A DNA stretch of 64,000 nucleotides from Burkholderiales bacterium (GTDB lineage: Bacteria > Patescibacteriota > Minisyncoccia > Phycocordibacterales > UBA9973). This document shows, one piece after another, positions 12,053 through 41,003 of the stretch; the first letter of the stretch is position 1, and each line of letters starts with the position of its first letter. The position numbers were made by a program, and so were the translations under genes. Under the pieces are notes generated by a model. That model was not told the origin of the DNA. It made no database searches and was given only the letters and a program-made list of their open reading frames with translations. Where the stretch lies: the NCBI GenBank assembly GCA_023701005.1, contig JAMPXW010000003.1, positions 9,148 through 73,147 on the forward strand. Reading direction: 5' to 3'.

Positions 12053-12057
12053 AAATT

Positions 12058-13275: not shown

Positions 13276-13290
13276 GTTATAGACATTATA

Positions 13291-15981: not shown

Positions 15982-16020
15982 AAAGAAGATACTATAAATC
16001 AATTTCTATCATCTTATATC

Positions 16021-16177: not shown

Positions 16178-16182
16178 TTCTC

Positions 16183-16857
16183 TTATTTAATTAAGAAACT
16201 CATTGTGGAGACTAAACGTATCTTTTTATATTCAGGTGATCCTGGATCCTTTTCTGAAATATCAAACACTCCTTGATTACCACGATGTAAGCCACCCAAG
16301 CTAGACCCTGTTTCCCCAGCTATCTTTTGAGCAGTATCTTTTGCATTCTTGAGAGCTTCAGCCAACATTTCTGGCTTTATTGTATTTATGTCTGAAAATT
16401 CAAAAGAAACAGAATTTTGATTCATTACAATTCCATTCTTTATTAATACTAAAGTATCTTTTGAAACTGATTTTATCAAATCAACTTTTTTAGTATAAAC
16501 AGAAAGTTGGTTTGTAGAATTGTATCTAAACAATGCATCTTTGTAGGTATCTTGATATATATTTACTGGTGCGACATTTATTTCAGATTCTTCAAAACCT
16601 TTCTCTTTCAAGAAAGCTTTGATAGTAGCTATGTTTTTACCAATATCAGCATATAAAGAATCAACATTATTTGATTTAACTTCAAAATTGATTGACCAAA
16701 TAGCTGTATCAGCTTTTACTATTCTCTCAGACAAACCTTTGACCTCTACATAAGAACCTTGTTTTGAAAAGTTTTGTGCAGCAAGGAAAAATATTGCTGA
16801 AAAAACCAAAACACCTAAACCTATAACCCACACATTGTAATTTTTTGTATTTTCCAT
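16183..16857 (-). CDS. SIMPL/DUF541-like secreted or membrane-anchored protein
   Basis: N-terminal TM then beta-rich region; weak family resemblance only. Confidence 0.35.
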   Translation of the reverse strand: MENTKNYNVWVIGLGVLVFSAIFFLAAQNFSKQGSYVEVKGLSERIVKADTAIWSINFEVKSNNVDSLYADIGKNIATIKAFLKEKGFEESEINVAPVNIYQDTYKDALFRYNSTNQLSVYTKKVDLIKSVSKDTLVLIKNGIVMNQNSVSFEFSDINTIKPEMLAEALKNAKDTAQKIAGETGSSLGGLHRGNQGVFDISEKDPGSPEYKKIRLVSTMSFLIK

Positions 16858-20898: not shown

Positions 20899-21000
20899 TT
20901 AGGTCCGAACTTGGTGATATTTCCTAAGAAGGTAACAAAAAATCACCTTGTAAATAAAGGTGATTTTGCTGGCTCCGAACGTGGGAAGAAGTTCGGAAAG
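20899..21000 (+). repeat. structured repeat unit, copy 2
   Basis: ttaggtccgaacttgg...cctaag; caccttgtaaataaaggtg hairpin; gattttgctggctccgaacgtgggaagaagttcgg. Confidence 0.5.
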
Positions 21001-21492
21001 CTATTCTAGGGTGTAATTAAAAATTTTAATTGGTATTCCCTTCTTCTCTGCTTTGTTTATAGTATCTTGTGTTCCTTCACTTTTATTTACGTGAAAAGCG
21101 ACTAGTTCATCGGCATTTTCAATAATCTTTGTTATGCGGTTATAATAAGTTTCCTTATTTAATACATCTTCGTTTCCTTCTATCAAAGAACCTCTTTTTT
21201 TAACTTCTTTCAATTGCGACAAAAGAGCATCAGCTTGGTCTTTAGTTATTACGCCTTCTTGTGCTCTTTTGGAATAATGGTTTTCGTATGTTTCTAAAGT
21301 GGAAGGAATAATTATTTTCAATTTTCCATCTAATTCTAAAGTTCTTTCTGTGGCTATGTAGTCTACCCCCAAAGCTCCACCTGAAACAATCCCGTTTCCT
21401 GCTGAAATTATTTCATCAACGGTCTTTAATATGTCTTCTTTTATTTGAGAATTGGTTTTTCTCCAAGATCCTGCTACTGCAATCCATTTCAT
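21001..21492 (-). CDS. standalone DprA/SMF-like Rossmann (SLOG) domain protein
   Basis: IVSGGALGVDYIATERTL and YYNRITKIIENADELVAFHV..SEGTQDTINKAEKKGIPIKIF resemble DprA core (GxARGID / RNRII..VVEA..SGsLiTA). Confidence 0.5.
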   Translation of the reverse strand: MKWIAVAGSWRKTNSQIKEDILKTVDEIISAGNGIVSGGALGVDYIATERTLELDGKLKIIIPSTLETYENHYSKRAQEGVITKDQADALLSQLKEVKKRGSLIEGNEDVLNKETYYNRITKIIENADELVAFHVNKSEGTQDTINKAEKKGIPIKIFNYTLE

Positions 21493-21558
21493 AACTTAAT
21501 TATATGATATAATTTTAAATATGGAAGGAAACAAGCAAAATAATATAACTTTCATAGA

Positions 21559-21768
21559 ATGAAGAACTTAATTGAAAATAACACTTTTAATAAAATAGTT
21601 TTGGTTTCTGGTGATGGGGATTATAAAAAATTAGTATACTACCTAGTTGAAAAAAATAAATTTTGCAAAATATTGTTTCCTAATAAAAAATTTGCTTCAT
21701 CTTTATATGATTCACTTGGGTCAGAATACTTTGATAATTTAGAGAACTTAAAAACATACATAGCTTAA
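21559..21768 (+). pseudogene. NYN/LabA-like domain C-terminal fragment (likely remnant of a longer gene)
   Basis: IVLVSGDGDYKKLV...KFCKILFP matches the distal SGDGDF...G..V motif of NYN/LabA domains; N-terminal catalytic half is absent. Confidence 0.4.
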
Positions 21769-21870
21769 AAAAGAAAAGGGCTCCTAAGGCACTAACACCT
21801 TTCGGATCCCTTTTCATATTGATACCCATATTGTATTACAGTTGTCAGACAAAAGTCAAGTGTTTGTTTA

Positions 21871-21963
21871 CTTAGGTTCGAATGTCCTAAGTTCCTCTGA
21901 AAATTACCCTTATATTGCAAGGCTTAGATTTTGCTCGGGATGCTGAACAATGTTCGAACATTC
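21871..21963 (+). repeat. structured repeat unit, copy 3
   Basis: cttaggttcgaatgtcctaag; ccttatattgcaagg; gattttgctcgggatgctgaacaatgttcgaaca. Confidence 0.5.
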
Positions 21964-22259
21964 TTATATTCAAAATATAACAAAAATTATTTGCATGATC
22001 AATAAACAAAATGATATAATGTTACACGTTACCAAGCTGATCTGCATACGCGTCAGCCCATGGTAGATAGGATGCGATTTGCTACCCTTTCTCCATTGGT
22101 CATATGACCTAATTTATTGGTCAATGAAAGGTGCCAAGCATTTGCTGGCATTTCCCGGTCGATCTATATAATAAGGGGAAACCAGATTGTGAGGTGCGTA
22201 TGAGCGCACTTTTTTGTTGCGTTAACAATTATTAGTAATAGTTAATTAACAAAATTATC

Positions 22260-23441
22260 ATGAATAATACAATTAAAATTAGAAAGGTTTCCTCGTTTAG
22301 AAAGGTTTTTAGTTCTCCTCAAGGAAAAAGCAAGAATATCTACATAGCTATTCTTAATATAAAAGATTTACCGAAAGAGCTTGATGGTTGGTTGGCAATA
22401 AACCCAAGAGAGTCTACCCCTGTTTCTGGTGTAGCAAAAAAAATACAAGCTTCATTAATCGAACAACCTGAAGCTTTTATATTCAAAAACAGAGGATTAA
22501 CGGTAATGACAAAAAAAGTTAATTTTGAAACTCAGACAAATATAATTTCTCTAGAAATGTCTGATCCAAAAATACATGGATTACTTGATGGTGGACATAC
22601 TTACAAAGTAATACAAAATGAACTAAGCAACACAATTGATGGGAGAAAAGATTTAGAAAACGCTTATGTTCGAGTTGAGTTTCTTGAAGGTTTTGATGAC
22701 TTAAATGAAGTTGTTGATATAGTAGACGCAAGAAATAGATCGGCCCAAGTAAAAGAACAAAGCTTAGAGGAATTAAGAAGTCACTTTGAGTCAATAAAAA
22801 GTGTTTTGAAAGACCGACCATATGCGGACCGAGTTGCATATAAAGAAATTGAATTATTAGAAGATGGATCTAAAAAAGATATTGATGTAAAAGAAATCTT
22901 ATCCTATCTAGTATGTTTCGACAATGAAGCATTCACTGACAACAAGCACCCAATAGTTGCCTATTCTGGAAAAGCTACTGCACTAAAACACTACATAGAA
23001 AACAGAGATAGAATGTCTAAATATACGATATTGCTACCTAAGATACTTGAACTAGTAGATAAAATTAAACAAGATATACCTAAATCTTATAATGCTCAAG
23101 GTGGCAGATGGGGCGGTTTACAAGGAGTTATAACTGAAAAAGAAAGTAAAAGAAAAACTGAGCTACCTTTTATAGGCGGTGAGTCAGAATACCAAACGCC
23201 ATCAGGTTTTATCTACCCAATCCTTGCTTCGTTTAGATCTGTGGTTCGAATTGAACGAAATAAGGTATCCTGGAAAATCGATCCTGTGGAATTATTTGAA
23301 AAAGTAAAACCCATGCTAGCCGAAGCAATTGGTGAACAAGCAATTGAATTTAGAAATCCAAACAAACTCGGTAAAGACGGAGCAACTTGGAGATTATGCT
23401 ACGCTCTTGTGGCACTCGAAGTAGCGAAGTTGGGTTATTAA
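22260..23441 (+). CDS. defense-associated ParB-fold protein, DGQHR/DndB-like (positional analogue of Abi genes beside Type I R-M)
   Basis: INPRESTPVSGVAKKI then LLDGGHTYK (DGQHR-like motif) ~residue 110; own terminator at 23455-23488; the family assignment is tentative. Confidence 0.35.
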   Translation: MNNTIKIRKVSSFRKVFSSPQGKSKNIYIAILNIKDLPKELDGWLAINPRESTPVSGVAKKIQASLIEQPEAFIFKNRGLTVMTKKVNFETQTNIISLEMSDPKIHGLLDGGHTYKVIQNELSNTIDGRKDLENAYVRVEFLEGFDDLNEVVDIVDARNRSAQVKEQSLEELRSHFESIKSVLKDRPYADRVAYKEIELLEDGSKKDIDVKEILSYLVCFDNEAFTDNKHPIVAYSGKATALKHYIENRDRMSKYTILLPKILELVDKIKQDIPKSYNAQGGRWGGLQGVITEKESKRKTELPFIGGESEYQTPSGFIYPILASFRSVVRIERNKVSWKIDPVELFEKVKPMLAEAIGEQAIEFRNPNKLGKDGATWRLCYALVALEVAKLGY

Positions 23442-23454
23442 AAAAAATATTTTT

Positions 23455-23488
23455 CAGCACCTAGATAAAATAGGTGCTGTTTTTTTTA
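23455..23488 (+). terminator. rho-independent terminator after 22260-23441
   Basis: cagcaccta-gataaaa-taggtgctg followed by T8. Confidence 0.65.
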
Positions 23489-23540
23489 AAAAAAACAAAG
23501 TATGAAAATCTTATAAAAAATGCTAAAATGAAAAGTATCT

Positions 23541-25853
23541 ATGTCTAAAGATCAAGATAATCCAAATCGTGTAATTACAGAACAAGATGCTCGCATCGTA
23601 ATAAACAGAAAACTCCAAGAAGCTGGATGGTCTTTAGAAGGTCCGGAAAAAAATGTATTGACCGAGCAACACTCAGATGCAGGATTTATGGACTATCTCC
23701 TCTTAGATCGAAATGGTAGAAACCTAGCCCTAGTTGAAGCAAAAAAGGATTCCATAGATCCATACACTGCAAAGAACCAAGCGCGAGGATACGCAGAAGC
23801 AAATAACTGCAGATATGTATTCCTAGCGAACTCTGAACAATTATATTTCTGGGACTTAGAAGATGGTGATGCTACTCCCATCGAAAGGTTTATATCTCCA
23901 CAAGACTTACAACGCAGACATGATCTCAAGCTGTCACGCAAACCATTATCTTCAATTCCTCACAATATGGAGATCTGTGACAGACCATATCAAGTTAGCG
24001 CGTCAGACACCATTGCAAAACAATTCGACGAAGGTAAAAGATCTTTCCTTCTTGAGATGGCCACAGGTACAGGCAAAACAAGATTGTCTGCAGGGATAAT
24101 AGACCGCTTCTTAAAAGCACATCAAGCTGAAAGAGTTTTGTTTATTGTGGACCGAATAGAACTAGCTAAACAAACACTAGATGCCTTTCAAATAGCATTC
24201 AAAGACAACTATAGAGCTGTACGTTATAAACCCGGCCAGCATGCAGTATTCGGTGGTGCAAATATCGTAGTAGCGACAATACAAAGCTTAAACATCCACT
24301 TCAAAAAAGACTTCACCCCGGGTTATTTTGACTTAGTTATCAACGATGAAGCACATCGATCCATATACGGCGAATTACCACGCCAAGTTGTTGAATACTT
24401 CCAAGCGGTGCGTATAGGACTAACTGCTACTCCAAACGACTTTTTGAAAAATATAGACATAGAAAAACTACAAGATAGTAATCCCCTTAAACTTGAATAC
24501 AGGTTTGCTCGTGATACATACAAACACTTCGGCTGTGATATGAGTACGCCAACATTTAGATACACCATCCAAGATGGAGTAAAGGATGGCTTCCTCGTTG
24601 CTCCACGTATTGCTCGTATGGTATCAGTAATCACCAAAGAAGCTGTTTCAGAAGATGGATGGAATATAGAAATAGATGGCGAAGACTATACCTATCGTAT
24701 TTCTCAGTTAGAAAAAAAGGTTCTCATCCCAAAAAGAAACGAATTGATTTGTTTTCAATTTTTACAAAATGCATTAAAAACACCAGATGGAGCTATTGGT
24801 AAATCTGTATTCTTTGCAGTATCACAAAACCACGCCGTGGCTCTCGCTCGAGAATTAAACAGACTAACTCCTGAACACAATGGTAAATTCGCGGAGGTTA
24901 TAACTTCTCGTGTGCAAGGAGCTTCTGACCTGGCTAAGCAATTCAGAAAAGATGAAAACTTCTATCCTCGTATAGCGGTGAGTGTGGACATGCTAACTAC
25001 GGGTTTTGATTGTCCTGAAATTCTAAACATAGTACTCGCTCGTCCGATTGCTTCACCAACCACATACATTCAGATCAAAGGACGTGGTACTAGAAAGTAT
25101 ACCTTCCCAGACGGCACACCCAAAAAAGAATTCTTGGTGCATGACTTCTGTGAAGTGGTGAAGTATTTTGAAGAAGAATATGACTTCGAAGCACCGTTAC
25201 CTGTGACTGGTACTGGTGGCGGTGGCACAACACCACCCCCACCTCCTCCACCACCTGAAGAAGTAAAAACCTACGAAGGCACTGATGAAATAGTACTAAC
25301 AGAAATGATTCAAGTCGGTCCTGAGGGTGAAAAAGTAGACCGTCTTGTTTATATAACAAAATGGGAAAAGACTATCAGACAAATTATCAACGAAAACCCA
25401 ATCCTAGCTAAACAAGTAGAAGAAGGTTCTGAAGAAGAAATATCAGAATTCTTGCGTACAAATGTCTTCGACAAACCGACAGAATACTTCAACGAGAGAA
25501 ACCTTTCCCGTGCATATAGAGTGTTTGGGGATTTGATTGATTTTGTGAAAGCAGGTCTTGGTATGCAAAAACTTCCGACCCGAGAAGAGCAATTACTCGA
25601 ATTGGTAGAAAGCATCAGAACTGATCACGACCTAAACCTAGAACAAGTAAGGTTGTTAAAGATACTTGTAAGGCAATTGAGCCAAAGCCCTAAGCTCTTG
25701 GCCAAGTTTGAGGCCGGAGATTACTCTTTCCTCGACGAATCGCCTTTCTCTCAGTTTGGTGGTACAAGAATGTATATAGCTGGCTTTGATTCGAAAATTA
25801 GAGTAGTGTTTGATACCGTACGCTCAAGTCCGGCGTTAACAATAGTTGAATAA
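23541..25853 (+). CDS. hsdR: Type I restriction enzyme R subunit (short form, with poly-Pro linker)
   Basis: HSDR_N nuclease-like N-terminus (DYLLLDRNG..LVEAKK), helicase motifs EMATGTGKT, DEAH, LTATP, QIKGRGTR; GGGGTTPPPPPPPP linker at ~25200-25260; noticeably higher GC than surroundings. Confidence 0.85.
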   Translation: MSKDQDNPNRVITEQDARIVINRKLQEAGWSLEGPEKNVLTEQHSDAGFMDYLLLDRNGRNLALVEAKKDSIDPYTAKNQARGYAEANNCRYVFLANSEQLYFWDLEDGDATPIERFISPQDLQRRHDLKLSRKPLSSIPHNMEICDRPYQVSASDTIAKQFDEGKRSFLLEMATGTGKTRLSAGIIDRFLKAHQAERVLFIVDRIELAKQTLDAFQIAFKDNYRAVRYKPGQHAVFGGANIVVATIQSLNIHFKKDFTPGYFDLVINDEAHRSIYGELPRQVVEYFQAVRIGLTATPNDFLKNIDIEKLQDSNPLKLEYRFARDTYKHFGCDMSTPTFRYTIQDGVKDGFLVAPRIARMVSVITKEAVSEDGWNIEIDGEDYTYRISQLEKKVLIPKRNELICFQFLQNALKTPDGAIGKSVFFAVSQNHAVALARELNRLTPEHNGKFAEVITSRVQGASDLAKQFRKDENFYPRIAVSVDMLTTGFDCPEILNIVLARPIASPTTYIQIKGRGTRKYTFPDGTPKKEFLVHDFCEVVKYFEEEYDFEAPLPVTGTGGGGTTPPPPPPPPEEVKTYEGTDEIVLTEMIQVGPEGEKVDRLVYITKWEKTIRQIINENPILAKQVEEGSEEEISEFLRTNVFDKPTEYFNERNLSRAYRVFGDLIDFVKAGLGMQKLPTREEQLLELVESIRTDHDLNLEQVRLLKILVRQLSQSPKLLAKFEAGDYSFLDESPFSQFGGTRMYIAGFDSKIRVVFDTVRSSPALTIVE

Positions 25854-25856
25854 AAA

Positions 25857-27335
25857 ATGAAATTACAATTTACAAATTCAGACATAAAACAAAAAGTAGA
25901 TCGCATCATGTATGAGCTGTTTGCTGGTGGAGTAAACAACCCAATGACAGCCATCGAACAGATCAGCTATTTGATGTTTCTAAAATCCTTAACTGAATTT
26001 GATGAGCAACAAGAAAGAATTTCTAATCTATCTGGTAAAAAATACGAGAGTGTATTCAATGGAAAAATCAGCAAGTTCAGTTGGCGTGTAATTAGTCGAC
26101 TTTCTGGTGATGAGCTATATAACACACTAGCAGAAGTATTCGAACATTTACACGAACTTCCAAAACTTACAGCCACAGGAAAAACCCTATTCCGCCAAGC
26201 TCACTTAAAGATATACAATCGCCCTACCCTAAAATCAGTAGTGAGTATTATAGATGGAATGGACTACAACAATGCTGAAAAATACGACACAGATGTCAAA
26301 GGAGATATGTATGAATATCTCTTAAACAGAATAGCTGTGGCCGGTACAAACGGACAATTCAGGACTCCACGTCACATCATCAAGGCTATGGTTGAATTAA
26401 GTAAACCAAAACCATCAGATCTAATACTGGACCCGGCTTGTGGTACTGCTGGATTTTTGATTGAAGCATACAAACACATACTCAAAGAAAATACTTCAAA
26501 AGAAGAATTAGCTGAAGGAAATGAAAATGGTGACGAACTATCACCTGCACAACATGAATTCCTAAAAACAAAAGCTATCAATGGTTTTGACAACGATGCA
26601 GACATGATTAAAGTAGCGGTAATGAATTTATACCTTCATGATTTAGCTCAATCAAATGTAATAAACTTCGATCCACTAACTCTTCCAGAAGAAAAGAAAA
26701 AGAAATACGATTTGATACTCGCAAACCCTCCTTTCGCTGGTAATATAAACCCTGAAGCAATCCAAGAAGACATTGGATTAAGTACTACAAAAACAGAATT
26801 ACTATTCTTGAAATACATGTATGACCATCTAGCTGATGGTGGTAGATGCGCAGTGATTGTGCCTGAAGGAATCTTATTCGGGTCTACAGGCGCTCACAAA
26901 AAAATGCGTGAACTAATGATGGACACATGCAAAATAGATGCAGTAATCAGTCTTCCCTCTGGAGTATTCAAACCATATGCGGGAGTAAAAACTGCGATAA
27001 TCTTGTACACGAAAGGTGGTAAAACTGACAAGGTCTGGTTTTATGAAGTAGTTGGTGATGGATTTACTCTTGATGATAAAAGAAACCCAGACCCAAAGAA
27101 TGACAACCTAAAGGATTTATTCAAGGCTTTCGAAAAGAAAGAAGCTGGCCCGTATAGTTGGATAGTAAAAAGAGATGAAATAGTAGCTGAAGAATACAAC
27201 CTCACAGCATCACGATACAAACCTGCAAGCACTGAAGTCATAAACCACCGAGACCCTAAAGAGATCATTACAGAGGTAATGAAACTTGAAAAAGAAATAG
27301 TCGAGGGTCTTGAAAATCTAAAGAAAAAGATATGA
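25857..27335 (+). CDS. hsdM: Type I R-M N6-adenine DNA methyltransferase subunit
   Basis: HsdM N-domain, AdoMet motif DPACGTAGF, catalytic NPPF. Confidence 0.9.
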   Translation: MKLQFTNSDIKQKVDRIMYELFAGGVNNPMTAIEQISYLMFLKSLTEFDEQQERISNLSGKKYESVFNGKISKFSWRVISRLSGDELYNTLAEVFEHLHELPKLTATGKTLFRQAHLKIYNRPTLKSVVSIIDGMDYNNAEKYDTDVKGDMYEYLLNRIAVAGTNGQFRTPRHIIKAMVELSKPKPSDLILDPACGTAGFLIEAYKHILKENTSKEELAEGNENGDELSPAQHEFLKTKAINGFDNDADMIKVAVMNLYLHDLAQSNVINFDPLTLPEEKKKKYDLILANPPFAGNINPEAIQEDIGLSTTKTELLFLKYMYDHLADGGRCAVIVPEGILFGSTGAHKKMRELMMDTCKIDAVISLPSGVFKPYAGVKTAIILYTKGGKTDKVWFYEVVGDGFTLDDKRNPDPKNDNLKDLFKAFEKKEAGPYSWIVKRDEIVAEEYNLTASRYKPASTEVINHRDPKEIITEVMKLEKEIVEGLENLKKKI

Positions 27336-28423
27336 CATGGGAAACGATACAATTCGACAAAATAATTACTTCATATGGTGTTGGTAAAAATGGTCTATCT
27401 AAAAAAGATTGGAGTGAAGATGACAAATATCCAGTAATAGGACAAGGCGCTGATTTCATAGAAGGTTGGACAAACAGAGAAGATTTGGTAATTAATCCTG
27501 ATTCTGAGGGTTTAGTTATTTATGGTGGACACACACGAAGAGCAAAATATATAACTACACCTTTTGTGCCCGGTCCTAATGTGAAAATACTAAAAACACC
27601 TCCTGAGATAAAACCTAGATTTTTATTCTACTTTCTTAATTCTGCAGAAATACCAAATAAAGGGTATGCGGATCACTTTCCTCTTGTAAAAAGAATTAAA
27701 GTACCTATACCTTCCATAAAAGAGCAAGAAAGAATTGTAGCTCTTCTTGAGCAAGCTGAGGAATTAAAAAACAAAAGAGCTGAGGCAGATCAAAAAATGG
27801 AAGAACTAGTCCCTGCATTATTTAATGATATGTTCGGGAATTTGTCACAATGGCCAAAAATCAAACTCAGAGATATAGCAATTGTTAAAATAGGCCCCTT
27901 TGGGACACAATTACATAAACATGATTACATAGAAAATGGCACCCCCATTGTTAACCCTACTCATATAGTTGAAGGTAAAATAATTGTAAATCAATCATTT
28001 ACTATCAGTGAAGAAAAGACCAAAGAAATTAATCAGTATATTATGCATACCGGAGATATCGTGCTAGCAAGAAGGGGTGAAATGGGAAGATCTGCGATAG
28101 TCTCTGAAAAAGAAGATGGCTACTTGTGCGGTACAGGTAGTTTGTTTATAACTCCAACTAACCAAATTAATCCATATTTTCTAAACACAATTTTTTCTTC
28201 AATTCAAATGAAAAAAACATTAGAGGAAAATGCTCGTGGCGTGACAATGAAAAACTTAAATATCAATATCGTTGAAAATATATGTATTTCAAACCCACCC
28301 ATAGAATTACAAAACCAATACGAGAGAACTATTAAAGAACTTATGTTCTTAAAACATAAACAAGAAGAATCGGTCAATAAATTAAAAGAACTATTTACGG
28401 CTATTCTAACAAAAAGCATATGA
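27332..28423 (+). CDS. hsdS: Type I R-M specificity subunit (two target-recognition domains)
   Basis: two TRD halves separated by conserved coiled region (EQERIVALLEQAEELK); start overlaps hsdM stop (ATGA). Confidence 0.85.
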   Translation: MTWETIQFDKIITSYGVGKNGLSKKDWSEDDKYPVIGQGADFIEGWTNREDLVINPDSEGLVIYGGHTRRAKYITTPFVPGPNVKILKTPPEIKPRFLFYFLNSAEIPNKGYADHFPLVKRIKVPIPSIKEQERIVALLEQAEELKNKRAEADQKMEELVPALFNDMFGNLSQWPKIKLRDIAIVKIGPFGTQLHKHDYIENGTPIVNPTHIVEGKIIVNQSFTISEEKTKEINQYIMHTGDIVLARRGEMGRSAIVSEKEDGYLCGTGSLFITPTNQINPYFLNTIFSSIQMKKTLEENARGVTMKNLNINIVENICISNPPIELQNQYERTIKELMFLKHKQEESVNKLKELFTAILTKSI

Positions 28424-30102
28424 CAAGACAGAAACCTATAAAAGAAATAATGCCGTGGAGCAAAGATGAGCTAGAAAAACTATTACTCAAAGTAATAGAC
28501 CTTGGTGTAGAGACAGCTAAAATTGATTTCAAGCTCGAAATTGAAACAAACACTCCTGAGCAAAAATCAGAACTATTAAAAGATATTTGTGCAATTTCAA
28601 ATACTTATGACCTAAATTATGATGATTATGGTTTTCTTATATATGGAGTAAAATCAAAATCTATTATTGGTATCTCTACAACGGAAGAAAATACTGACAA
28701 TTTTCAAAATCACATAGAGCAATTACTCAAAAACAACATCACTCCTACTCCACAAATACAGATTGTTTCTTTTGAAACCGAAGACAATAAAAAATGGGGT
28801 GTAATTGTTATACCACCAGACAACAATAAACCTCACATGTTCTTTAAGGATTTCTCTTGTCCAACAAATCCAAGCAAAAACAGAAAAAAGGGCGAATGGT
28901 TTGTAAGACATGGTTCTACTACCGACCCTGCTTCAGCAGAAGATCTCTCAATCATTAACCAAAAACAAATTGAAATAACCTTAGAGCCACTAAAAGAGAG
29001 TATTAAGAATTTACAAGCTCGTGTTCTAAAAACTGAAGAGCAGTACAACAGCGCCCTATTTAAGCTAATAGAAACTGCACTAAAAAATACTACTCAAAAT
29101 AGAAATGCGCCTGAAGTAGAAAAAACTGAAATTGCATCTGATATTGAAGAAGTAGTTTCAGTTGATTTGGCAAGTCGATTCAAAAGTAAATTACTTACAC
29201 CTAAAGATAAGTTATCCGAAGAACTTATCTCGGAGGCAATTAAAATAAGAGAATACATAGATGGAGCAAATACAGGGCTAACTTGGATACCTCAATTAAA
29301 TAATTCGGAAGACAATAAAAAGATCGTAGAAAACTTAGAAGAAAAGATAAAACCATTTATTGATTCTGTGGCCATGATCGTATTAAAGGACGAAAAAAAT
29401 ATCTATAAAGAATCACTAATAAAAGCTATAAAAATTCTTTGCAAATCAATAGATGCCCCAAGTGGCACTCAGTATAATAGAATAGGACAAGGTATTAGAT
29501 ACTATCCATTATACCTACTCTTATATGTGATTTTTATTTGCGGGGTGGTTTCAAATAAAGGATCGTTACTAAAAGATATACTGAATCTTCAAATAAAACA
29601 TCCACGAACTAAAAATACCTCACCTATTACAGATGTTTATTTCTTCGCCTATGAAGGAAAAGCTTTAGTAAACGATGCTTATAAACAAAGGTGGTGTGAG
29701 CCAATTGCGCAAAGAATACGACAATTTATAAGTGACAATATCGGTGAACATATTACAGAAATGTCTGAGGCGGAGTATTTTTTCAAAGGAGAATTTGTTC
29801 TATCACTAAGTAATATCAATAAGGCGATGAGTGATGGCGAACAAGTAGAACACAGAATTCCACTAGGTGGACTTTATCTACATTTATATGAATGCAACGA
29901 ACCAATAACCGATTTAATAACAGAATTACCCGATTGGCTAGATAAATTATATGATCATCCACTAAACGAAATTCTAGACATGTTTGATAAAAATGCAACA
30001 AAAATGTCTGGCCAGGGTTGTTTTGCAACAGGTACTCATGGTCTTAAAACCAGAGAATTATATGACCTCGCGTTAAGCTCTAGAGCTAAAAAGACTCGAT
30101 AA
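28420..30102 (+). CDS. AlbA_2/Schlafen-like (COG2865-type N-domain) protein with coiled-coil middle and uncharacterised 230-aa C-terminal domain
   Basis: N-term ETAKIDFK...ICAISNTYD..GFLIYGV...WFVRHGSTTDPASAEDL matches AlbA_2 signature (E..LEFK / AlANt.GG / yvRvGsst..A..ee); ATGA overlap with hsdS stop. Confidence 0.6.
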   Translation: MTRQKPIKEIMPWSKDELEKLLLKVIDLGVETAKIDFKLEIETNTPEQKSELLKDICAISNTYDLNYDDYGFLIYGVKSKSIIGISTTEENTDNFQNHIEQLLKNNITPTPQIQIVSFETEDNKKWGVIVIPPDNNKPHMFFKDFSCPTNPSKNRKKGEWFVRHGSTTDPASAEDLSIINQKQIEITLEPLKESIKNLQARVLKTEEQYNSALFKLIETALKNTTQNRNAPEVEKTEIASDIEEVVSVDLASRFKSKLLTPKDKLSEELISEAIKIREYIDGANTGLTWIPQLNNSEDNKKIVENLEEKIKPFIDSVAMIVLKDEKNIYKESLIKAIKILCKSIDAPSGTQYNRIGQGIRYYPLYLLLYVIFICGVVSNKGSLLKDILNLQIKHPRTKNTSPITDVYFFAYEGKALVNDAYKQRWCEPIAQRIRQFISDNIGEHITEMSEAEYFFKGEFVLSLSNINKAMSDGEQVEHRIPLGGLYLHLYECNEPITDLITELPDWLDKLYDHPLNEILDMFDKNATKMSGQGCFATGTHGLKTRELYDLALSSRAKKTR

Positions 30103-30342
30103 AAACCAAGGAAAATGGTAAAATGAATTTACCATAATTTATGGTGACAAAACCTAAACCAGAGCAATCTGGCATGGTTCAAATATCCCACGCGAATAGA
30201 AACGGCCACATAAGCCGACATTCATTCGCGTGGGTCCACAATCGAAAGGTTGTGGGATAGTTCCGAAAGGAGCTGTCGTCGTGTCTTGTGTGGCCATTTG
30301 TGTTAAACAAGCCGACTATTATCAACTAAAACCCACGCGAAA
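30103..30342 (+). other. GC-rich highly structured leader/ncRNA candidate with mutually exclusive pairings
   Basis: cccacgcgaa at 30187 and again at 30329 just before the ATG, complementary ttcgcgtggg at ~30231; hairpins atggtaaa/tttaccat/atggt, ccaga-gcaa-tctgg, cccacaa-tcgaaagg-ttgtggg. Confidence 0.45.
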
Positions 30343-31212
30343 ATGAAAACTAAATATAACAAAGGATTTATTCCTATCATAGCGATAGTGATACTTGGAA
30401 TGCTTGTTGTCGCCGGAGGCACAACGGCTTTGATAAGTAGTAAAAAAGAAAATGTAAATAAAATTGCACCCGAAGATAAGAGTGTCCTAAAAAACGAAGA
30501 GGTGTCTTCAAACAAAAACACAGAAGTAAAGACAGAAAAAACGAATATCTCTGAGACAGAAAAACAAGTAAAAATTGAAACAAAAACTCCTCTGGTAGAT
30601 ACAGAAGAAAATGTAAAAACAAAACTAGTAGATACAACAAAAGAACAACCGGCAGAGATACCACAGGAAGTAAAAACTGGACATCTAGGAATAAAATTGA
30701 TCAATGAATTTTTACAAATTCCTACCTTAGACAACCTGAAAGCATTCTGTACTAAAGCAAAAAACGTAGATGGTATATCAGAAAAGAAAGTAATGAATCA
30801 GGACAAAACTGCATATGTGATACAAAAAAATTCTCTCTATGATGAAGTAAAAATATGCAAAACAGCTCTAAATGAATACCAAGGAAGCGAATGGTATAAA
30901 TGGACTTCTTATAAAGAAGATTACTTAATCAAACTAGTAGACCCTAGTGAACCAGACAGCATTAGATCTAAAAAATTGGATTACAACGAAAAGATGTTGT
31001 TAATGAAAGAATATAATTTATTTGCATATGATCCCTCTTCTGCAAGATTTGAAGATGTATCCAACTATTTGAAACCAAACGTGGTGATGGAAAAGATAAT
31101 AGAAATTGATCAAAGCAAAAGAAATAGTATAACATCGAGGATGTATCTAAATTCATTTTTAATACCCGAGAAAGAAATGGTCAAACTCAAAGAAAGACTA
31201 ATAAAACAATAG
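30343..31212 (+). CDS. hypothetical secreted/membrane-anchored protein (N-terminal TM, Lys/Glu-rich linker)
   Basis: signal-anchor FIPIIAIVILGMLVVAGG then low-complexity region. Confidence 0.5.
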   Translation: MKTKYNKGFIPIIAIVILGMLVVAGGTTALISSKKENVNKIAPEDKSVLKNEEVSSNKNTEVKTEKTNISETEKQVKIETKTPLVDTEENVKTKLVDTTKEQPAEIPQEVKTGHLGIKLINEFLQIPTLDNLKAFCTKAKNVDGISEKKVMNQDKTAYVIQKNSLYDEVKICKTALNEYQGSEWYKWTSYKEDYLIKLVDPSEPDSIRSKKLDYNEKMLLMKEYNLFAYDPSSARFEDVSNYLKPNVVMEKIIEIDQSKRNSITSRMYLNSFLIPEKEMVKLKERLIKQ

Positions 31213-31261
31213 ACGCAATTGAAAAAACAAAGAATTCAAAAAATGTCTCAAAATAAACCCT

Positions 31262-31801
31262 TTATAAATAAGGTTGCAAGTCTCTGCAATTTGACCTATC
31301 CAAAAGATTACTAGGGAGACGTGTAGTTATCCAATCAGAATTAGAAAGTAGTAATAACTTCCAAACCCAAGCAGATTCAAAAAACAATCTGGTCCTATCC
31401 TTCCAAGATAATTCAGGGTTAGCATAACAACTAAAACCATCTTCATTTATAAATAAAGTATTATAGGAAGTTATAGCTTTGTATGCTTCTTCCATAAAAC
31501 AAGAAGACAACTTAATCCCTCCACGCTTCTCTAAATCCTTAGCTAAAGCTTCTAAAACAGCATTCAATCGTCCATCCTGTATCCATCTTTTATACCTTCT
31601 ATGACATGTTTGAAAAGACGGAAAACCCTCGCCTTTAGGTAAGCGCCTCCAAGAACCACCTAGCTGAATCACATACAAAATACTATTAAGCACATCTCTA
31701 TCAGAAGTTCTTTTTCTTCCTCTGGTTTCCAAAGAATTACGCTTAATAAGCGGTTCTACTAAAGCCCATTGTTTATCTGTTAACTTAAATGGCAAGATCA
31801 T
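31262..31801 (-). mobile_element. IS5-family (IS427/ISL2 group) transposase remnant, N-terminal DUF4096-type domain only
   Basis: LTDKQWALVEPLI..RGRKRTSDRDVLNSILYVIQLGGSWRRLP...YKRWIQDGRLN matches IS5-family N-terminus; DDE region degenerate/absent, 179 aa. Confidence 0.65.
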
Positions 31802-31838
31802 ATATTAATTATAAAATAAATTGATATAATTAAAATGT

Positions 31839-32525
31839 ATGGAAACTAAAGGCGATAAAAATGTGCTAGCGCACATAGCTGATGTGATATTAAAATCGAA
31901 AGTAAAAGACAATAATCAATACTCTGGAATCAAGTATGAGTCTCTTCCGTTTGCAAAAGAAGAAGCTAGAGAAGGACTCAAGGAATTAGCAAGAAACAAG
32001 TACATAGAAATAGAAAAAGATTATGATACATACTTACACGAAGAACCAATACACGACCCATTCCCTATAAATAACCACCCCTCAAAAACAATCTATACAA
32101 TACCGGCCGGAGCATTAGTAAAAATAAAGAATGAAAAAGAACTAAAAAAACTAGCTTCGACTAAATCATTTATAAATCCAAATATCAAAGATTTGAAAAA
32201 AGATGAGAGTACTGGAGATTTTTATTTGAAAGAAGATAAGTTAGAAATGGGACACGAAACCACACATTACACTCTCTTAGAGTTATTCTACGAAAAAGCT
32301 ACTGATGGAGTTATCACACAAGACTCCGCTCTAGAATTTTTTAATGAAAGAAAAATCAAAGTCGGTGGCAAAAAGATAACAAAAGAAAATATAAATAAAA
32401 CAATAAATAACTATACCGCTTCTCTACTAAGATTCGCAAAAATTAAAGGAAAAAGATTCACAAGCTCACCAATAAAAAAAGTGAAAAAAGGCAAATATGT
32501 AATCGGCTGGAAATTCTCTAAATAA
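31839..32525 (+). CDS. hypothetical protein, 228 aa
   Basis: ORF only. Confidence 0.45.
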   Translation: METKGDKNVLAHIADVILKSKVKDNNQYSGIKYESLPFAKEEAREGLKELARNKYIEIEKDYDTYLHEEPIHDPFPINNHPSKTIYTIPAGALVKIKNEKELKKLASTKSFINPNIKDLKKDESTGDFYLKEDKLEMGHETTHYTLLELFYEKATDGVITQDSALEFFNERKIKVGGKKITKENINKTINNYTASLLRFAKIKGKRFTSSPIKKVKKGKYVIGWKFSK

Positions 32526-32664
32526 TATAATACTTACATTTTACTTATGGATAACCTCAATTGAGGTTATTTTTACATTGCAAACAAAGACTATTTTCTA
32601 AATATAAGTAAAACTAATCAATTCTAAGCTAAAAAAGAAATTCATAGAATAAATATACACAACG

Positions 32665-32727
32665 CCAAGGCGATCAAAGTAGTTGTGTAAGTCCATCCCT
32701 TGATCCAATCGCCTTGGTCAAGGGATG
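32665..32727 (+). promoter_or_regulatory. leader with two mutually exclusive hairpins (attenuator-like)
   Basis: stem A ccaaggcgat/atcgccttgg; stem B catcccttgatc/ggtcaagggatg whose loop contains the 3' arm of A; B abuts start codon region of 32725-32949. Confidence 0.35.
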
Positions 32728-32949
32728 TATTTATTTATGAAGTTCAGCACAGAACAATTAAACAGACTAAGAACAATCATGGAAAAAGATTATGGGGTTC
32801 TTATGAATGACTCTCAGTTAGAAAAATTCGCATCATCTATAGTACGTTTAGCAAATGTATCTCTAAAAGCTTTGACTGAAGAGAACGACACAGAGTCGCT
32901 CCCTTCAGTGAGGGCTAATGTGTCCTCAATAGCAAATACCAGCACTTAA
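32725..32949 (+). CDS. hypothetical small protein (74 aa; alternative start 32737)
   Basis: ORF only. Confidence 0.35.
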   Translation: MYLFMKFSTEQLNRLRTIMEKDYGVLMNDSQLEKFASSIVRLANVSLKALTEENDTESLPSVRANVSSIANTST

Positions 32950-33326
32950 GTGCCTTTTCAAGCCCTGGGCGCACCTATGTGGGGCTTGTAAAAATAAAAT
33001 AGACATAGGATTGGTTTCGTGATCCCGCGATTAAGGGATGAGGGGTGTCACAAGGAAACCAAACCACTGATTGCGGTGTAGCTTAAAAGACCCTAACGCA
33101 ATCAAGTTCACCACCAGTACATTATTATGAGCTGTGTTGGATAGATGGGTCCAAGTAACCTCCGAGATAAAACGGAAAAAGGTACGGCGACCCCCTAAGG
33201 TTCTAAAACCGTGGGGGTTTGGGGGCTATTGGATTCGGGAAAGGTGTCTTTACTAGACTTCTTGAGAAAAATCCAATACCCTTGTGTTTGCATAAATTAT
33301 TAGAAATTAATAACAAAAAAAATAAA
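32950..33326 (+). other. GC-rich structured non-coding region upstream of serine recombinase (ncRNA or recombination-site candidate)
   Basis: hairpins caagccc...gggcttg, tggtttc...gaaacca, gattgcg...cgcaatc, attggatt...aatccaat; competing ccccc/ggggg segments; markedly GC-richer than genome. Confidence 0.4.
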
Positions 33327-35036
33327 ATGGAAAAAGAACAACAAAAATTAAACAAATACTTTATTTATTGCAGAAAGTCTACAGACAGCGAAGATAGACA
33401 AATACAATCATTATCAGATCAAATTAGGATATTACAAGAAATGGCAGAAAAGAAAGGTTTAATGATAGTAGAAACCTTACAAGAAGCTAAATCTGCTAAA
33501 GCACCCGGTAGGCCAGTATTCACGAAAATGATTGAGAGAATTAGTAAAGGTGAAGCCAATGGAATAATCACATGGAAATTAAATCGATTAGCGCGTAATC
33601 CTATAGATGGTGGAACTATCAGCTGGCTACTCCAACAAGGAGTGATTAAAGAAATCCTCACCCCGGAAAAAAGCCACTATCCAAATGATAATGCATTAAT
33701 CATGTCAGTAGAATTAGGTATCGCAAATCAATTCATTAGAGACTTAAGTAGTGATGCTAAGCGTGGTATAAAAACAAGAGCAACACAAAAAGGTTACCCA
33801 AATGGAGTTGCTCCTATAGGATACTTAAATGATCTTGTGAAAGCCAAAGGAGATCGTGGCTGGAAAGTAGACGAAGAAAGATTTCCAATAATAAAACAAA
33901 TACTAAAAATGTTTGCCACGGGTAAATACTCAGTGAGACAAATGACTAGTATTGCTAACGAAGAAATGGGATTGAGAACCTTTATAAGGAAAAAACAAGG
34001 TGGAAAGAAAATCGTTGTATCTTACATGGATGTGATATTAAAAAATCCAGTATATGCCGGCTTCTTCTTTCTCAATACAGATAATAGTAGGCATGAAGTA
34101 AACAAAGAAATTCCAAGAATGATCTCTGAAGAAACATATTGGAAAATACAAAAAATTCTTGGAAACAGAGGACGCCCTAGGCCTCACAAAAATATAAAAG
34201 CTTTCGCTTATACAGGTCTCACCAAATGCGGTGGCTGTGGTGGCTCTGTGACGGCTGAAGAAAAATACCAATTAATATGTTCCAGTTGTAAGCATAAATT
34301 CGCCTATGCAAGTAAAAACGAATGCCCCAAATGCAAAACAAAGATAAAAGACATGGAAGATCCTACTTACTTACACTATACCTACTATCACTGCACAAAA
34401 AAGAAAAGAGAACTAAAATGCAAAGAAAGATCAGTGGTGGATACAAAAATCGATGAGACGCTGGCAGACTACTATAAAAAAAACTTAAAAATATCAGCCG
34501 ACTTGTCTAAGTGGTGCATAGAAAATCTACGAGTAATTGAGAAAGAAGAAAAGCAAAATGATTACGAGATAAAAGCGTCTTTACAGAAAACCCTGACATC
34601 AAAAGAAAAAGAGCTTTCAGAACTAGCACTGATGCGCGCCAGAGGGCTTTTGGACGATGAAAGCTTCATTACAGCACAAAATACAATAAAGGAAGATATT
34701 AGCGCCCTTAAGCGAAAATTGAGCGAATTTGAGCATCTTGATCCAGAAAAAGCAGAAAGGATTTACCAAGCATTCGACCTATCGCAAGGCATAGACGAAA
34801 TTATCAGAAATGGCACGCCTGAAGAGAAAAAATCAGTATTATTGGAAATTGGTTCGAACCTAACTCTAAAAGACAAAACAATCAATGTTTATAACAGCGA
34901 ATTGTATTCTGCAATAATAAATGGACTACATTTAGCAAAGTCTGAAATTGAGTGGTTCGAACCTGAAAATTATCAAGCAGAACAAGAACAAAACGCCTCT
35001 TTCGAGGCGCTTCGTTCAACCATGCTCCGGGGGTAG
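33327..35036 (+). CDS. large serine recombinase (integrase type: resolvase catalytic domain + recombinase domain + zinc ribbon + coiled coil)
   Basis: YCRKSTDSEDRQ..SLSDQ catalytic Ser region, LNRLAR, CGGCGGS...CSSCKH...CPKCKT zinc ribbon; start set at MEKEQQ (ORF track start 33219 overlaps a conserved hairpin); stop overlaps tRNA-Asn 3' end. Confidence 0.8.
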   Translation: MEKEQQKLNKYFIYCRKSTDSEDRQIQSLSDQIRILQEMAEKKGLMIVETLQEAKSAKAPGRPVFTKMIERISKGEANGIITWKLNRLARNPIDGGTISWLLQQGVIKEILTPEKSHYPNDNALIMSVELGIANQFIRDLSSDAKRGIKTRATQKGYPNGVAPIGYLNDLVKAKGDRGWKVDEERFPIIKQILKMFATGKYSVRQMTSIANEEMGLRTFIRKKQGGKKIVVSYMDVILKNPVYAGFFFLNTDNSRHEVNKEIPRMISEETYWKIQKILGNRGRPRPHKNIKAFAYTGLTKCGGCGGSVTAEEKYQLICSSCKHKFAYASKNECPKCKTKIKDMEDPTYLHYTYYHCTKKKRELKCKERSVVDTKIDETLADYYKKNLKISADLSKWCIENLRVIEKEEKQNDYEIKASLQKTLTSKEKELSELALMRARGLLDDESFITAQNTIKEDISALKRKLSEFEHLDPEKAERIYQAFDLSQGIDEIIRNGTPEEKKSVLLEIGSNLTLKDKTINVYNSELYSAIINGLHLAKSEIEWFEPENYQAEQEQNASFEALRSTMLRG

Positions 35037-35062
35037 GGATCGAACCTACGACCAATCGCTTA

Positions 35063-35631
35063 CACTTTATCTCCTATTACTAGAAGTGTGGACTATATCA
35101 TCTCCATGTTCATAAAATTTATGAATTTAGAAGCAAGGCGCTTCGCGCTCTAACATAAATTAGAGAGCTACTCCATAAATGGATAGTCTCTACACCTTCC
35201 TCAATTTAAAATTGAGGCTTGGCTCGGGATTACCCCATAAGGGCTTCCCCGAATTCACCTTGTTTTTCAACCTAAGTTTTCTTAGGAAGCTGCGTAATAC
35301 CGTCATGTATTTCCATATGACAATTTGCACACAAGAGAACACATTTATCAATTTCTTTTTTGATACGTTCCCATGACCTAGTTAACCCCCTAGAAGAAAG
35401 ATCAAAATCTTTTTCTTTTGGATTTAAGTGATGAAAACTTAATGATCTCTGGCATTTATTATAGCCACACACAATACACTTACCGCCTTTATAGTCTCTA
35501 GCCATTTCACGAAGCTTTTTTCTTCTTCTTGTAACAGCCATTACCATATATTCTCTACGGTCGGCATATGTTCGTTTTTCTACTCGTTTCTTTTTGGTAT
35601 ACACAAGTAGATTATACCACAAACATCCGAC
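35063..35631 (-). mobile_element. group I intron within tRNA anticodon loop
   Basis: 5' exon ends in U, intron ends in G; P7 pairing agacta...tagtc and P8-like hairpin tccatttatgga downstream of ORF. Confidence 0.65.
35272..35622 (-). CDS. HNH homing endonuclease encoded in the tRNA intron
   Basis: CIVCGYNKCQRSLSFHHLNPKEKD...LLCANCHMEIH HNH motif; non-ATG (TTG) start in track. Confidence 0.7.
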   Translation of the reverse strand: MWYNLLVYTKKKRVEKRTYADRREYMVMAVTRRRKKLREMARDYKGGKCIVCGYNKCQRSLSFHHLNPKEKDFDLSSRGLTRSWERIKKEIDKCVLLCANCHMEIHDGITQLPKKT

Positions 35632-35832
35632 ACAGGCGACCGCTCTACCGCTGAGCTACCCCGGAATATTTTATTTTCAATTCTTCTTTTAAATACCATA
35701 ATTTCCACCAAACTATCTACCTATAAGTAGATAAGCCCCGGAATATTATTCAATTAAAAGAACTTTTTATATCTTAACAGAAAATAACTAAAAAACAAGA
35801 TGGCTTTTCGTTTTAGTGTATAATTAAATACA

Positions 35833-36537
35833 ATGGATTATCAATATTTTTATATAGTTTGGACTTTAATATTTTTCGCCATTTGGATGGCTCTTTTTTT
35901 ATATCGCAAAGATTTAAGACATGAAATATCAGTCATAAGTTTTGGTTCTGGGTTCGGAGGGATATTCAGTCAGGCTACTCACATAGAAGACTGGTGGAAT
36001 CCTTTAAGACTAACTCAAACACCCATAGGAATTGAAGATTTTTTAATAGGATTTTCTATTGGAGGAATATGTTCTGTTGTATATGCAATATTGTTTAACC
36101 TAAAAGTCGAACCAAATAATTTTTATTTTACAAAAAATGGTAAAAACGATCGCTTGCTAGGTAATATTTTTTTACTTTCTTTTATTCTCTTATTCTTTTG
36201 GATGTTTTATATACTCAATATTAGTTCATCATATTCTGTATTGATATCATATTTGCTAGGAATATCTGTAATGCTTTTCTTCCGCAGGGATTTAATACAA
36301 AATTCTTTAATAAGTGGACTCATCACTCTCATGTTAGGGTCTCTCATTTATTACTTCCTAATGCTCTTATTCCCAGGATTCATAAATAAATTCTGGTATC
36401 TACCTCAAGTTTGGTATTCTAAAACATTTTTTGATATACCATTAGGAGAATATATCTGGTATTTTCTGACTGGAGCATTCATAGGTCCATTGTATAAATT
36501 TGTCAGAAATAAAAAGACAGTAAGAATAACACCTTAA
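35833..36537 (+). CDS. integral membrane protein (possible lycopene-cyclase-domain family)
   Basis: 7 predicted TM; PIGIEDFLIGF and IPLGEYIWYF resemble the hPhEE motif of lycopene cyclase domains; weak. Confidence 0.35.
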   Translation: MDYQYFYIVWTLIFFAIWMALFLYRKDLRHEISVISFGSGFGGIFSQATHIEDWWNPLRLTQTPIGIEDFLIGFSIGGICSVVYAILFNLKVEPNNFYFTKNGKNDRLLGNIFLLSFILLFFWMFYILNISSSYSVLISYLLGISVMLFFRRDLIQNSLISGLITLMLGSLIYYFLMLLFPGFINKFWYLPQVWYSKTFFDIPLGEYIWYFLTGAFIGPLYKFVRNKKTVRITP

Positions 36538-40992: not shown

Positions 40993-41003
40993 CGCGTAAA
41001 AAA

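Follow-up and report, generated by a model that had tools for sequence, protein, structure and literature searches.

A mosaic defence island with a Type I restriction–modification operon coupled to a predicted prokaryotic Schlafen gene

The DNA analysed here is a 64,000-nt stretch of contig JAMPXW010000003.1 (the window, to which all coordinates refer unless a related locus, designated L and a number, is named). Between positions 22260 and 30102 an earlier note on this DNA had described a composite defence island, and the five plus-strand open reading frames (ORFs) that it listed are placed as claimed, at 22260-23441, 23541-25853, 25857-27335, 27332-28423 and 28420-30102. Based on profile matches, these can be assigned with high confidence to an AIPR-family abortive-infection gene, to hsdR, hsdM and hsdS of a Type I restriction–modification (R-M) system, and to a Schlafen-type gene, ORF560. 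The block is accompanied by two structured RNAs, one ahead of the AIPR gene and one following ORF560. The features concerned are listed below.

22012-22020, plus strand: extended -10-like promoter element TGATATAAT, read from the sequence, with a weak -35 (TTGCAT) at 21991-21996
22020-22214, plus strand: structured leader RNA of the AIPR gene, about 190 nt with seven helices, the last of which is an intrinsic terminator (22191-22212 and a U run)
22260-23441, plus strand: AIPR-family abortive-infection gene, 393 aa (Pfam AIPR, PF10592)
23455-23487, plus strand: intrinsic terminator of the AIPR gene (hairpin 23455-23479, a 9-bp stem with five GC pairs, then T8)
23541-25853, plus strand: hsdR, Type I restriction subunit, 770 aa, EcoAI/EcoEI-like (Pfam ResIII, E 1.7e-39)
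25857-27335, plus strand: hsdM, N6-adenine methyltransferase, 492 aa (Pfam N6_Mtase, E 1.4e-60, and HsdM_N, E 3.6e-9; PADLOC MTase_I, E 2.6e-148, full length)
27332-28423, plus strand: hsdS, specificity subunit, 363 aa, with two target-recognition domains (Pfam Methylase_S in two stretches; PADLOC Specificity_I, E 3.9e-49)
28420-30102, plus strand: ORF560, predicted prokaryotic Schlafen (pSlfn) protein, 560 aa (AlbA_2 domain, coiled-coil linker and all-alpha C-terminal domain)
30151-30277, plus strand: LOOT RNA (Rfam RF03000), scoring 71.3 bits (gathering score 46.4) over model positions 1-121 of 121

The R-M operon and the architecture of ORF560

With respect to the R-M genes, hsdRMS appears from its sequence to be a complete canonical Type I system, contained in one operon and translationally coupled to ORF560. 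A promoter-like site (23502-23529) lies ahead of hsdR, the spacing between hsdR and hsdM is 3 nt, and ATGA stop/start overlaps join hsdM to hsdS (27332-27335) and hsdS to ORF560 (28420-28423). The earlier note had described a Type I R-M operon coupled to an AlbA_2/Schlafen-like gene through overlaps beginning at 27332 and 28420; the overlaps are present, and the assignments are upheld by Pfam, PADLOC and NCBIfam. In addition to ResIII, HsdR matches Pfam EcoEI_R_C (E 1.2e-9), Helicase_C and, weakly, HSDR_N_2, as well as PADLOC REase_I (E 1.4e-67). Its score against NCBIfam restrict_EcoAI is 246.7 bits, below the 550-bit equivalog cut-off, and we place it by similarity as a relative of the Type IB (EcoAI/EcoEI) subfamily, not as an equivalog. 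The overlap between hsdS and ORF560 is also found in the sister islands L001 and L002. HsdR and HsdM of the window are 92-93% identical to those of L001, the corresponding value for HsdS is only 57%, and DNA homology to L001 is lost at 27840-28352, within hsdS. This concentration of divergence in the specificity subunit suggests replacement of a target-recognition domain.

In the structure model of ORF560 (AF2, pLDDT 86.1), an alpha/beta domain occupies the N-terminus (residues ~12-180). A long helix forming a coiled coil (173-225) and a stretch of disordered linker separate it from the C-terminal domain, which is all-alpha (from residue ~245-250 to 560). The AlbA_2 homology claimed for this protein is clear on profile search, with Pfam SLFN_AlbA_2 (PF04326) matching residues 31-171 at 56.4 bits (cut-off 25.3). 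A Foldseek comparison of the N-terminal domain identified the tRNase domain of SAMD9 (9o0d, E 2.8e-4), and a profile of 38 ORF560 homologues searched against PDB sequences identified CbCash (9ylu, E 4.1e-14). Specifically, residues E17, D22 and K24 of CbCash align to E31, D36 and K38 of ORF560 (E-x4-D-x-K), which are invariant in the 38 homologues. CbCash is a tRNA endonuclease activated by cyclic tetraadenylate (cA4), and its E17-D22-K24 triad is required for cleavage (PMC13462974). RorSlfn5, a Schlafen protein that cleaves the anticodon arms of tRNAs and thereby protects E. coli from T5, contains residues E15 and D20, mutation of which abolishes cleavage (PMC13056530), and their spacing equals that of the two acidic triad residues in ORF560. 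By analogy with these enzymes, the N-terminal domain, with its E-D-K triad intact, is predicted to be a metal-dependent RNase, and ORF560 as a whole would probably act as a trigger-activated Schlafen RNase that causes growth arrest. The prediction that its substrate is tRNA, which draws on CbCash, RorSlfn5, SLFN11/13 and SAMD9, is an even call. A published survey of prokaryotic Schlafen proteins counted 55 fusion architectures, with unannotated partner domains in 17% of the proteins, and by its sequence ORF560 fits as a further member of this set.

In terms of the C-terminal domain, no relative was found in Pfam and no informative solved relative in the PDB. The domain is rare: an exhaustive phmmer search of 1.84 billion representatives returned 97 clusters, and most proteins in these clusters share the length and layout of ORF560, including AlbA_2. 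The same domain was also found behind SIR2_2 (P0296), PNP_UDP_1 (P0246) and a nucleotide cyclase (P0254). Of these, P0296 (with SIR2) matches the model of the PADLOC candidate system PDC-S65 over its full length (E 5e-170, model positions 21-551), whereas ORF560 matches this model only in part (residues 271-491 against model positions 330-543 of 592, E 2.5e-12). In single-gene defence proteins, a sensor or regulatory module is classically recognized as a conserved domain that stands behind swappable toxic effectors. Since the domain in question is found behind interchangeable effectors, we read it as the putative regulatory or sensing part of ORF560. One domain that would drive Schlafen, SIR2, PNP and cyclase outputs makes its trigger worth finding. 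Literature searches on PDC-S65 returned nothing usable. Taken as a whole, the defence-database search with PADLOC recovered the hsd genes, but it gave only a weak AbiU match for the AIPR gene (E 0.0026) and, for ORF560, PDC-S65 over the C-terminal part alone.

Genomic contexts and a working model for ORF560

The ORF560 family is small and stems for the most part from bacteria of the candidate phyla radiation (CPR). Homologues of 55-60% identity occur in CPR phyla, Sphingobacteriia and Syntrophaceae, and those of 42-46% identity in Terriglobia and Bryobacterales. Approximately 22 lineages of the family have usable flanks, in which R-M neighbours were sought with the Hsd proteins of the window. 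Embedding in Type I or related R-M operons is seen in three independent cases, namely the lineage formed by the window, L001 and L002, to which L023 also belongs, and the loci L029 and L013. The L029 operon has the order hsdR-hsdM-ORF563-hsdS, with a 4-nt overlap between hsdM and ORF563, and shares no more than 34-37% identity with the window in its R and M subunits. In L013 a gap of 37 nt separates the ORF560 homologue from the preceding gene for an HsdM-like methyltransferase (44% identical). Solo members of the family typically neighbour a tRNA gene or a large serine recombinase, and homologues of the recombinase present in the window adjoin ORF560-family genes in at least nine lineages. 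As a separate observation, hsdS of L029 is followed by two tightly packed ORFs of 482 and 402 aa (10824-13504), which may be additional embedded defence genes.

The recurrence of this arrangement bears on a guard model of the kind represented by PrrC, in which an HsdM2S or HsdR2M2S complex would hold ORF560 inactive until a phage anti-restriction protein releases it, making the R-M complex itself the sensor. Such a model draws support from the 4-nt overlaps, which arose in two unrelated Type I operons, from the third embedding beside an HsdM-like methyltransferase, and from the precedent of prrC, which lies inside the EcoprrI hsd operon and whose product is activated by the T4 Stp peptide. Like PrrC/EcoprrI (and RloC), ORF560 would be a latent nuclease, in its case predicted to target tRNA, that is expressed together with hsd genes to provide a second layer of defence, and its repeated independent embedding in Type I operons would represent a second, non-homologous case of the PrrC strategy. 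Nonetheless, most members of the family stand alone beside recombinases or tRNA genes, and the use of the C-terminal domain with SIR2, PNP and cyclase effectors in other proteins agrees with an autonomous sensor. PrrC combines an ABC-ATPase with a HEPN-like nuclease; searches with Pfam, NCBIfam and PADLOC found neither a sequence relation of ORF560 to PrrC nor the PrrC architecture (an ABC-ATPase N-domain and a C-terminal anticodon nuclease). The two also differ in that the ORF560 family is usually independent of R-M, and masking by an R-M complex, a feature of PrrC, is only proposed for ORF560. In our estimation the guard model, the main rival of the explanation given next, is doubtful, and any functional dependence of ORF560 on the R-M complex is unlikely.

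The explanation that we favour, and regard as quite probable, is an island made up of an AIPR module and an R-M/ORF560 operon, with ORF560 serving as a single-chain pSlfn immune protein that unites sensor and effector. Domain identities, catalytic residues, effector swapping and operon coupling are observed, and from these we infer a working order. The R-M system would first cut unmodified incoming DNA. Should a phage escape, a phage-derived cue would act on the C-terminal domain of ORF560 and unleash the Schlafen nuclease on tRNAs, such that translation and phage production stop and the cell is sacrificed. Co-translation with HsdS would place this backup under the expression control of the R-M operon, and the R-M complex may additionally gate ORF560, as EcoprrI gates PrrC.

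A number of points weigh against this explanation. AlbA_2 domains can be mere nucleic-acid binders, and several mammalian SLFNs are not nucleases; residues 156-385 of SAMD9 were reportedly first solved as a DNA-binding domain. ORF560 might instead be a nucleic-acid-binding regulator or accessory of the R-M system that acts, for instance, on hsd expression or target choice, and not a toxic effector. We hold this to be improbable given the invariance of the E-D-K triad, a partner domain shared with NADase and nucleosidase-type effectors, the absence of a helix-turn-helix (HTH) or HATPase domain in a Pfam scan of ORF560, and the occurrence of the gene mostly without R-M. Returning to the sensor–effector explanation, a hydrophobic helix at ORF560 residues 361-380 could instead indicate membrane association, and PDC-S65 is itself a candidate system. 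The pairing with restriction also counts against it. In approximately 19 of the 22 lineages, searches with the Hsd proteins of the window detected no Type I R-M, and in L023, a metagenome-assembled genome of Jorgensenbacteria whose hsdRMS are 82-85% identical, ORF560 is cut to its first 41 codons (8001-8123), apparently a natural deletion after which R-M persists without ORF560. Since most family loci are without detectable Type I R-M, the link of ORF560 to R-M appears recurrent yet optional and not defining, which favours an autonomous sensor for which co-expression is a convenience.

Overall, the finding is real yet largely ordinary: a composite mobile defence island in which ORF560 is a new member of the pSlfn class, and whose two RNA associations are the parts most deserving of follow-up. 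ORF560 places a Schlafen effector in fusion with a distinct putative sensor, among defence genes (R-M and AIPR). It shares with RorSlfn5 (Perez Taboada et al., Nat Microbiol 2026, PMC13056530) and the CRISPR-associated CbCash (Nat Commun 2026, PMC13462974) the N-terminal AlbA_2 domain with the E-x4-D-x-K motif, a predicted nuclease in ORF560, the single-chain design of a conserved effector and a variable sensor, and the defence-island neighbourhood. It differs from them in that its C-terminal domain is all-alpha and not of the Ig-like, HisKinase, DUF262 or Csx15 type, and in its coupling to a Type I R-M operon in a CPR host. PDC-S65 has a homologous C-terminal domain, but carries SIR2 where ORF560 has the Schlafen nuclease, and the predicted outputs are accordingly different (NAD+ depletion versus RNA cleavage). 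The ORF560 family thus joins the newly established pSlfn effectors with the sensor domain of candidate PDC-S65. CPR bacteria (Patescibacteria) have tiny genomes and their phage resistance is poorly known; here a Type I R-M system, an AIPR gene and a Schlafen-type predicted tRNase are found together on a recombinase-borne element.

The AIPR gene and its leader RNA

The first gene of the island matches Pfam AIPR over residues 47-350 at 105.8 bits (gathering score 25, E 4.5e-30). Additional similarity was found to a PHROG 'Abi alpha-like' family (E 1.9e-4), and the 631 homologues of the protein are mostly from CPR bacteria. R-M systems adjoin the AIPR homologue in six of nine independent loci and are of widely differing types: Type I in the window, DpnII-type in L007, L010 and L069, a C5-methylase with an EcoRII-C-like enzyme in L062, and a MutH-like enzyme with a methylase in L070; the remaining loci (L060, L061 and L072) have no R-M neighbour. 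These contexts agree with the Pfam description of AIPR, in which the family is a frequent member of R-M operons. In comparison to lactococcal AbiU(i), the gene is a bona fide AIPR member and, as is common for the family, R-M-adjacent, but it is much shorter than AbiUi (393 aa versus a 537-position model) and only weakly similar. Literature searches on AIPR returned nothing usable.

The earlier note had identified this gene as a DGQHR/DndB-like gene of ParB fold and had joined it with the R-M system and the AlbA_2 protein into one multi-layer system. The DGGHT motif underlying that identification is present at residues 110-114 and invariant among 38 homologues, and in the AF2 model (pLDDT 86.3) it sits at the end of a beta-strand with a helix following; the frequent position of AIPR beside R-M also speaks for the proposal. 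The ParB-like or DGQHR context of the motif is, however, unsupported. NCBIfam, which holds DGQHR and DndB models, gave no family for the gene at E<=0.01, and AIPR was the sole Pfam family at E<=10. Comparison with a DUF262/GmrSD_N protein by hhalign gave a probability of 0.05, Foldseek against the PDB gave no match below E 0.15 (the best ParB-related match being BrxU, E 0.63), and a profile search of PDB sequences with the AIPR family produced no matches. The DGQHR/DndB/ParB identity thus finds no support in these searches, and it is set aside in favour of AIPR.

With respect to the proposed single system, the layering of restriction and abortive infection is plausible, but the three modules do not constitute one system, because promoter, leader and terminator of the AIPR gene are separate and its R-M partners elsewhere are unrelated Type II systems, and because the ORF560 family occurs mostly without Type I R-M. 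The separate terminator, which the earlier note had recognized, is the hairpin at 23455-23479 with its T8 tract. The sister islands L001 and L002 are moreover without AIPR, their homology to the window beginning only at 23513. A single system of the kind originally proposed is thus very improbable, and these absences point to AIPR as a separate module that, as part of the explanation favoured above and with the same degree of confidence, would act independently as a further abortive-infection layer.

A feature of the AIPR module that emerged from comparison with other loci is the structured leader RNA. Approximately 240 nt 5' of the gene show 78% nucleotide identity to L007, about equal to the conservation of the protein, and the leader terminator ends ~45 nt before the AIPR start codon. 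Equivalents of the -10 element (TATTAT, TACAAT and TATCAT) align across five loci ahead of the leader, and the consensus promoter scan did not list this promoter owing to its weak -35. The leader folds with a minimum-free-energy z-score of -2.9, beating all 200 shuffles. A covariance model, R1, was built from five leader sequences and scores 169.9 bits in the window; it finds the leader directly 5' of AIPR and on the same strand in nine of nine independent loci of this AIPR subfamily, including four loci on which it was not trained (L072, 83.5 bits; L070, 34.2; L010, 27.2; L069, 17.8). In the nine-sequence alignment, which was fitted to the model, both sides have changed in 38 of 54 pairs, and 94.8% of cells are paired, compared with 34-47% in slid-partner controls. 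The copies outside the window, as placed by R1, are these.

L007, 7779-7966
L061, 4777-4967
L060, 4785-4968
L062, 256-442
L072, 3795-3983
L070, 3790-3949
L010, 7797-7971
L069, 3829-3978

Rfam contains no match to the leader even at E<=1, no tandem repeats were found in 21500-22260, and two distant viral AIPR loci (proteins 38-39% identical) are without it. A pattern of the leader core gave six matches in viral contigs, all of them in unrelated high-GC DNA with no AIPR nearby by tblastn, and these were rejected. One possibility is that the leader regulates AIPR as a read-through attenuator or a riboswitch; the other is an RNA antitoxin, in an arrangement resembling type III. The order of promoter, structured RNA, terminator and Abi gene is that of Type III toxin–antitoxin and Abi systems (ToxIN, AbiQ), but the leader is one complex seven-helix fold without the tandem repeats typical of antitoxin RNA, and AIPR is not a ToxN/AbiQ-fold RNase in any test run. 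The conserved structured leader also sets the gene apart from the AIPR family, and to our knowledge a leader of this type has not been described for Abi genes.

LOOT RNA, island limits and host

The second RNA, LOOT, starts 49 nt past the stop codon of ORF560. This metagenome-derived family is listed in Rfam as an sRNA, and no report of its function turned up in literature searches. LOOT was found in the window and in L001, L002, L005, L013, L014, L015, L016, L023 and L031, which represent eight independent lineages. Every match in the ~560 kb scanned with Rfam lies 49-3088 nt 3' of an ORF560-family gene or its remnant, on either strand, and none was found elsewhere in these sequences. The scan placed copies as follows.

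L001, 10746-10872
L005, 12819-12939, minus strand
L013, 4205-4336, minus strand
L014, 10646-10767, minus strand
L015, 9847-9965
L016, 4901-5021, minus strand
L023, 9542-9660, minus strand
L031, 12405-12541

No protein other than ORF560 is a conserved neighbour of LOOT, the neighbours being SNase, DUF805, surface proteins and unknowns; a homologue of ORF289, the next ORF of the window, also lies 3' of LOOT in L031. Two readings of LOOT can be proposed. It may work together with the Schlafen nuclease as an RNA partner, or, like tRNA genes, it may serve islands as an integration target or as a junction. The latter is the main alternative to a functional role. LOOT is missing in approximately 13 ORF560-family loci, and in three of these (L003, L012 and L028) a tRNA gene lies at the equivalent position and fills the role of a target. 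A bolder proposal, which we regard as speculative and rather unlikely, is that both abortive-infection-type genes are paired with dedicated controlling RNAs, AIPR with its leader and ORF560 with LOOT. The leader would then gate AIPR as a riboswitch-like attenuator or a type-III-like RNA antitoxin, and LOOT would partner ORF560 as a decoy, inhibitor or substrate mimic; if true, a function would be assigned to the orphan LOOT RNA for the first time. What the loci compared establish is association only (the leader in nine of nine loci, LOOT in eight lineages and always on the 3' side), with functional interaction as a proposal. The two RNAs nonetheless lend themselves to concrete experiments on an orphan Rfam family, and with the leader a new, strongly covarying RNA motif becomes linked to a widespread family of abortive-infection genes.

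Turning to the island as a whole, the earlier note had described the entire block as GC-richer than its flanks. Against a background of 46 window genes (mean 0.320, sd 0.028), elevated values within the block are limited to hsdR (0.406, z=3.1) and hsdM (0.371, z=1.8), but AIPR (0.342), hsdS (0.331) and ORF560 (0.330) are at background level, as is their GC content at third codon positions (GC3); the right-hand recombinase (0.360) is also above background. The inference of mobile, non-core DNA in that note fares better. To the right of ORF560, L001 has the gene order of the window, but it adjoins RNase HII and DnaE, whereas the window island is 17 kb away from DnaE, and related islands occupy other genomic positions with differing content (AIPR is absent from L001 and L002, and most of ORF560 from L023). 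The right-hand part of the island also contains a large serine recombinase and part of a transposase gene. We regard the interval, on this comparison, as a mosaic of separately mobile defence modules in a CPR chromosome and not as core DNA. The flanking features are listed here.

21559-21768, plus strand: NYN-domain gene fragment, the 69 C-terminal codons (Pfam NYN, E 1.1e-5, matching only profile positions 88-136 of 145), at the left-hand margin of the island region
30343-32949, no single strand: cargo of unknown function, comprising ORF289 (plus), a DUF4096 transposase fragment, ORF228 (plus) and ORF74 (plus)
31262-31801, minus strand: the DUF4096 transposase fragment (Pfam DUF4096, E 3.2e-22)
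33219-35036, plus strand: large serine recombinase, 605 aa (Pfam Resolvase, E 4.2e-18, and Recombinase, E 1.7e-5; NCBIfam XisF-like, E 5.7e-26)
35070-35359, minus strand: group I intron-like ribozyme (Rfam Intron_gpI, 65.5 bits against 50), right edge of the island
35272-35622, minus strand: HNH endonuclease ORF, overlapping and upstream of the ribozyme (PHROG HNH endonuclease, E 8.7e-30)

The housekeeping genes to the left, which are of low GC and on the minus strand, end at 21492. The truncated NYN gene ~500 nt 5' of the AIPR module may be a remnant of the insertion site or of a former neighbour; a full-length NYN gene is found in L070 (1724-2320), 1.7 kb 5' of AIPR. A search for direct and inverted repeats over 21000-36600 gave AT-rich chance matches only and no att repeats, so the only markers of the island ends are the loss of homology, a truncated gene and the recombinase. 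This recombinase is the probable mobility gene of the island, judging from its domains.

The genes around the island are typical of small CPR genomes. Together with a window GC of 33% and a DnaE that is 85-88% identical to Candidatus Nomurabacteria/Paceibacterota proteins, they indicate that the host is probably a Nomurabacteria/Paceibacterota-like CPR bacterium, and that the 'Burkholderiales bacterium' label of the assembly fits poorly and probably reflects a binning error.

Within the cargo, ORF289, ORF228 and ORF74 have no Pfam, NCBIfam, PADLOC or PHROG matches. ORF289 was considered as a decayed ORF560 paralogue because of a 35-nt repeat, and this was rejected. The ribozyme is complete and lies directly 3' of the HNH ORF; neither a host gene nor exons are obvious around it. 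The pair is also present next to the islands in L001 (ribozyme 15699-15943, HNH 15899-16213) and L017 (9905-10140 and 10101-10430), and in two of these three loci, the window and L001, it directly adjoins the 3' end of the serine recombinase gene. The recombinase coding region of the window contains a terminator-like hairpin (35017-34986, minus strand). Further to the right, the window encodes three ordinary housekeeping RNAs, namely tRNA-Ala(TGC) at 40919-40993, a class A RNase P RNA at 42126-42433 (plus strand, 109.9 bits) and tRNA-Thr(TGT) at 53843-53916.

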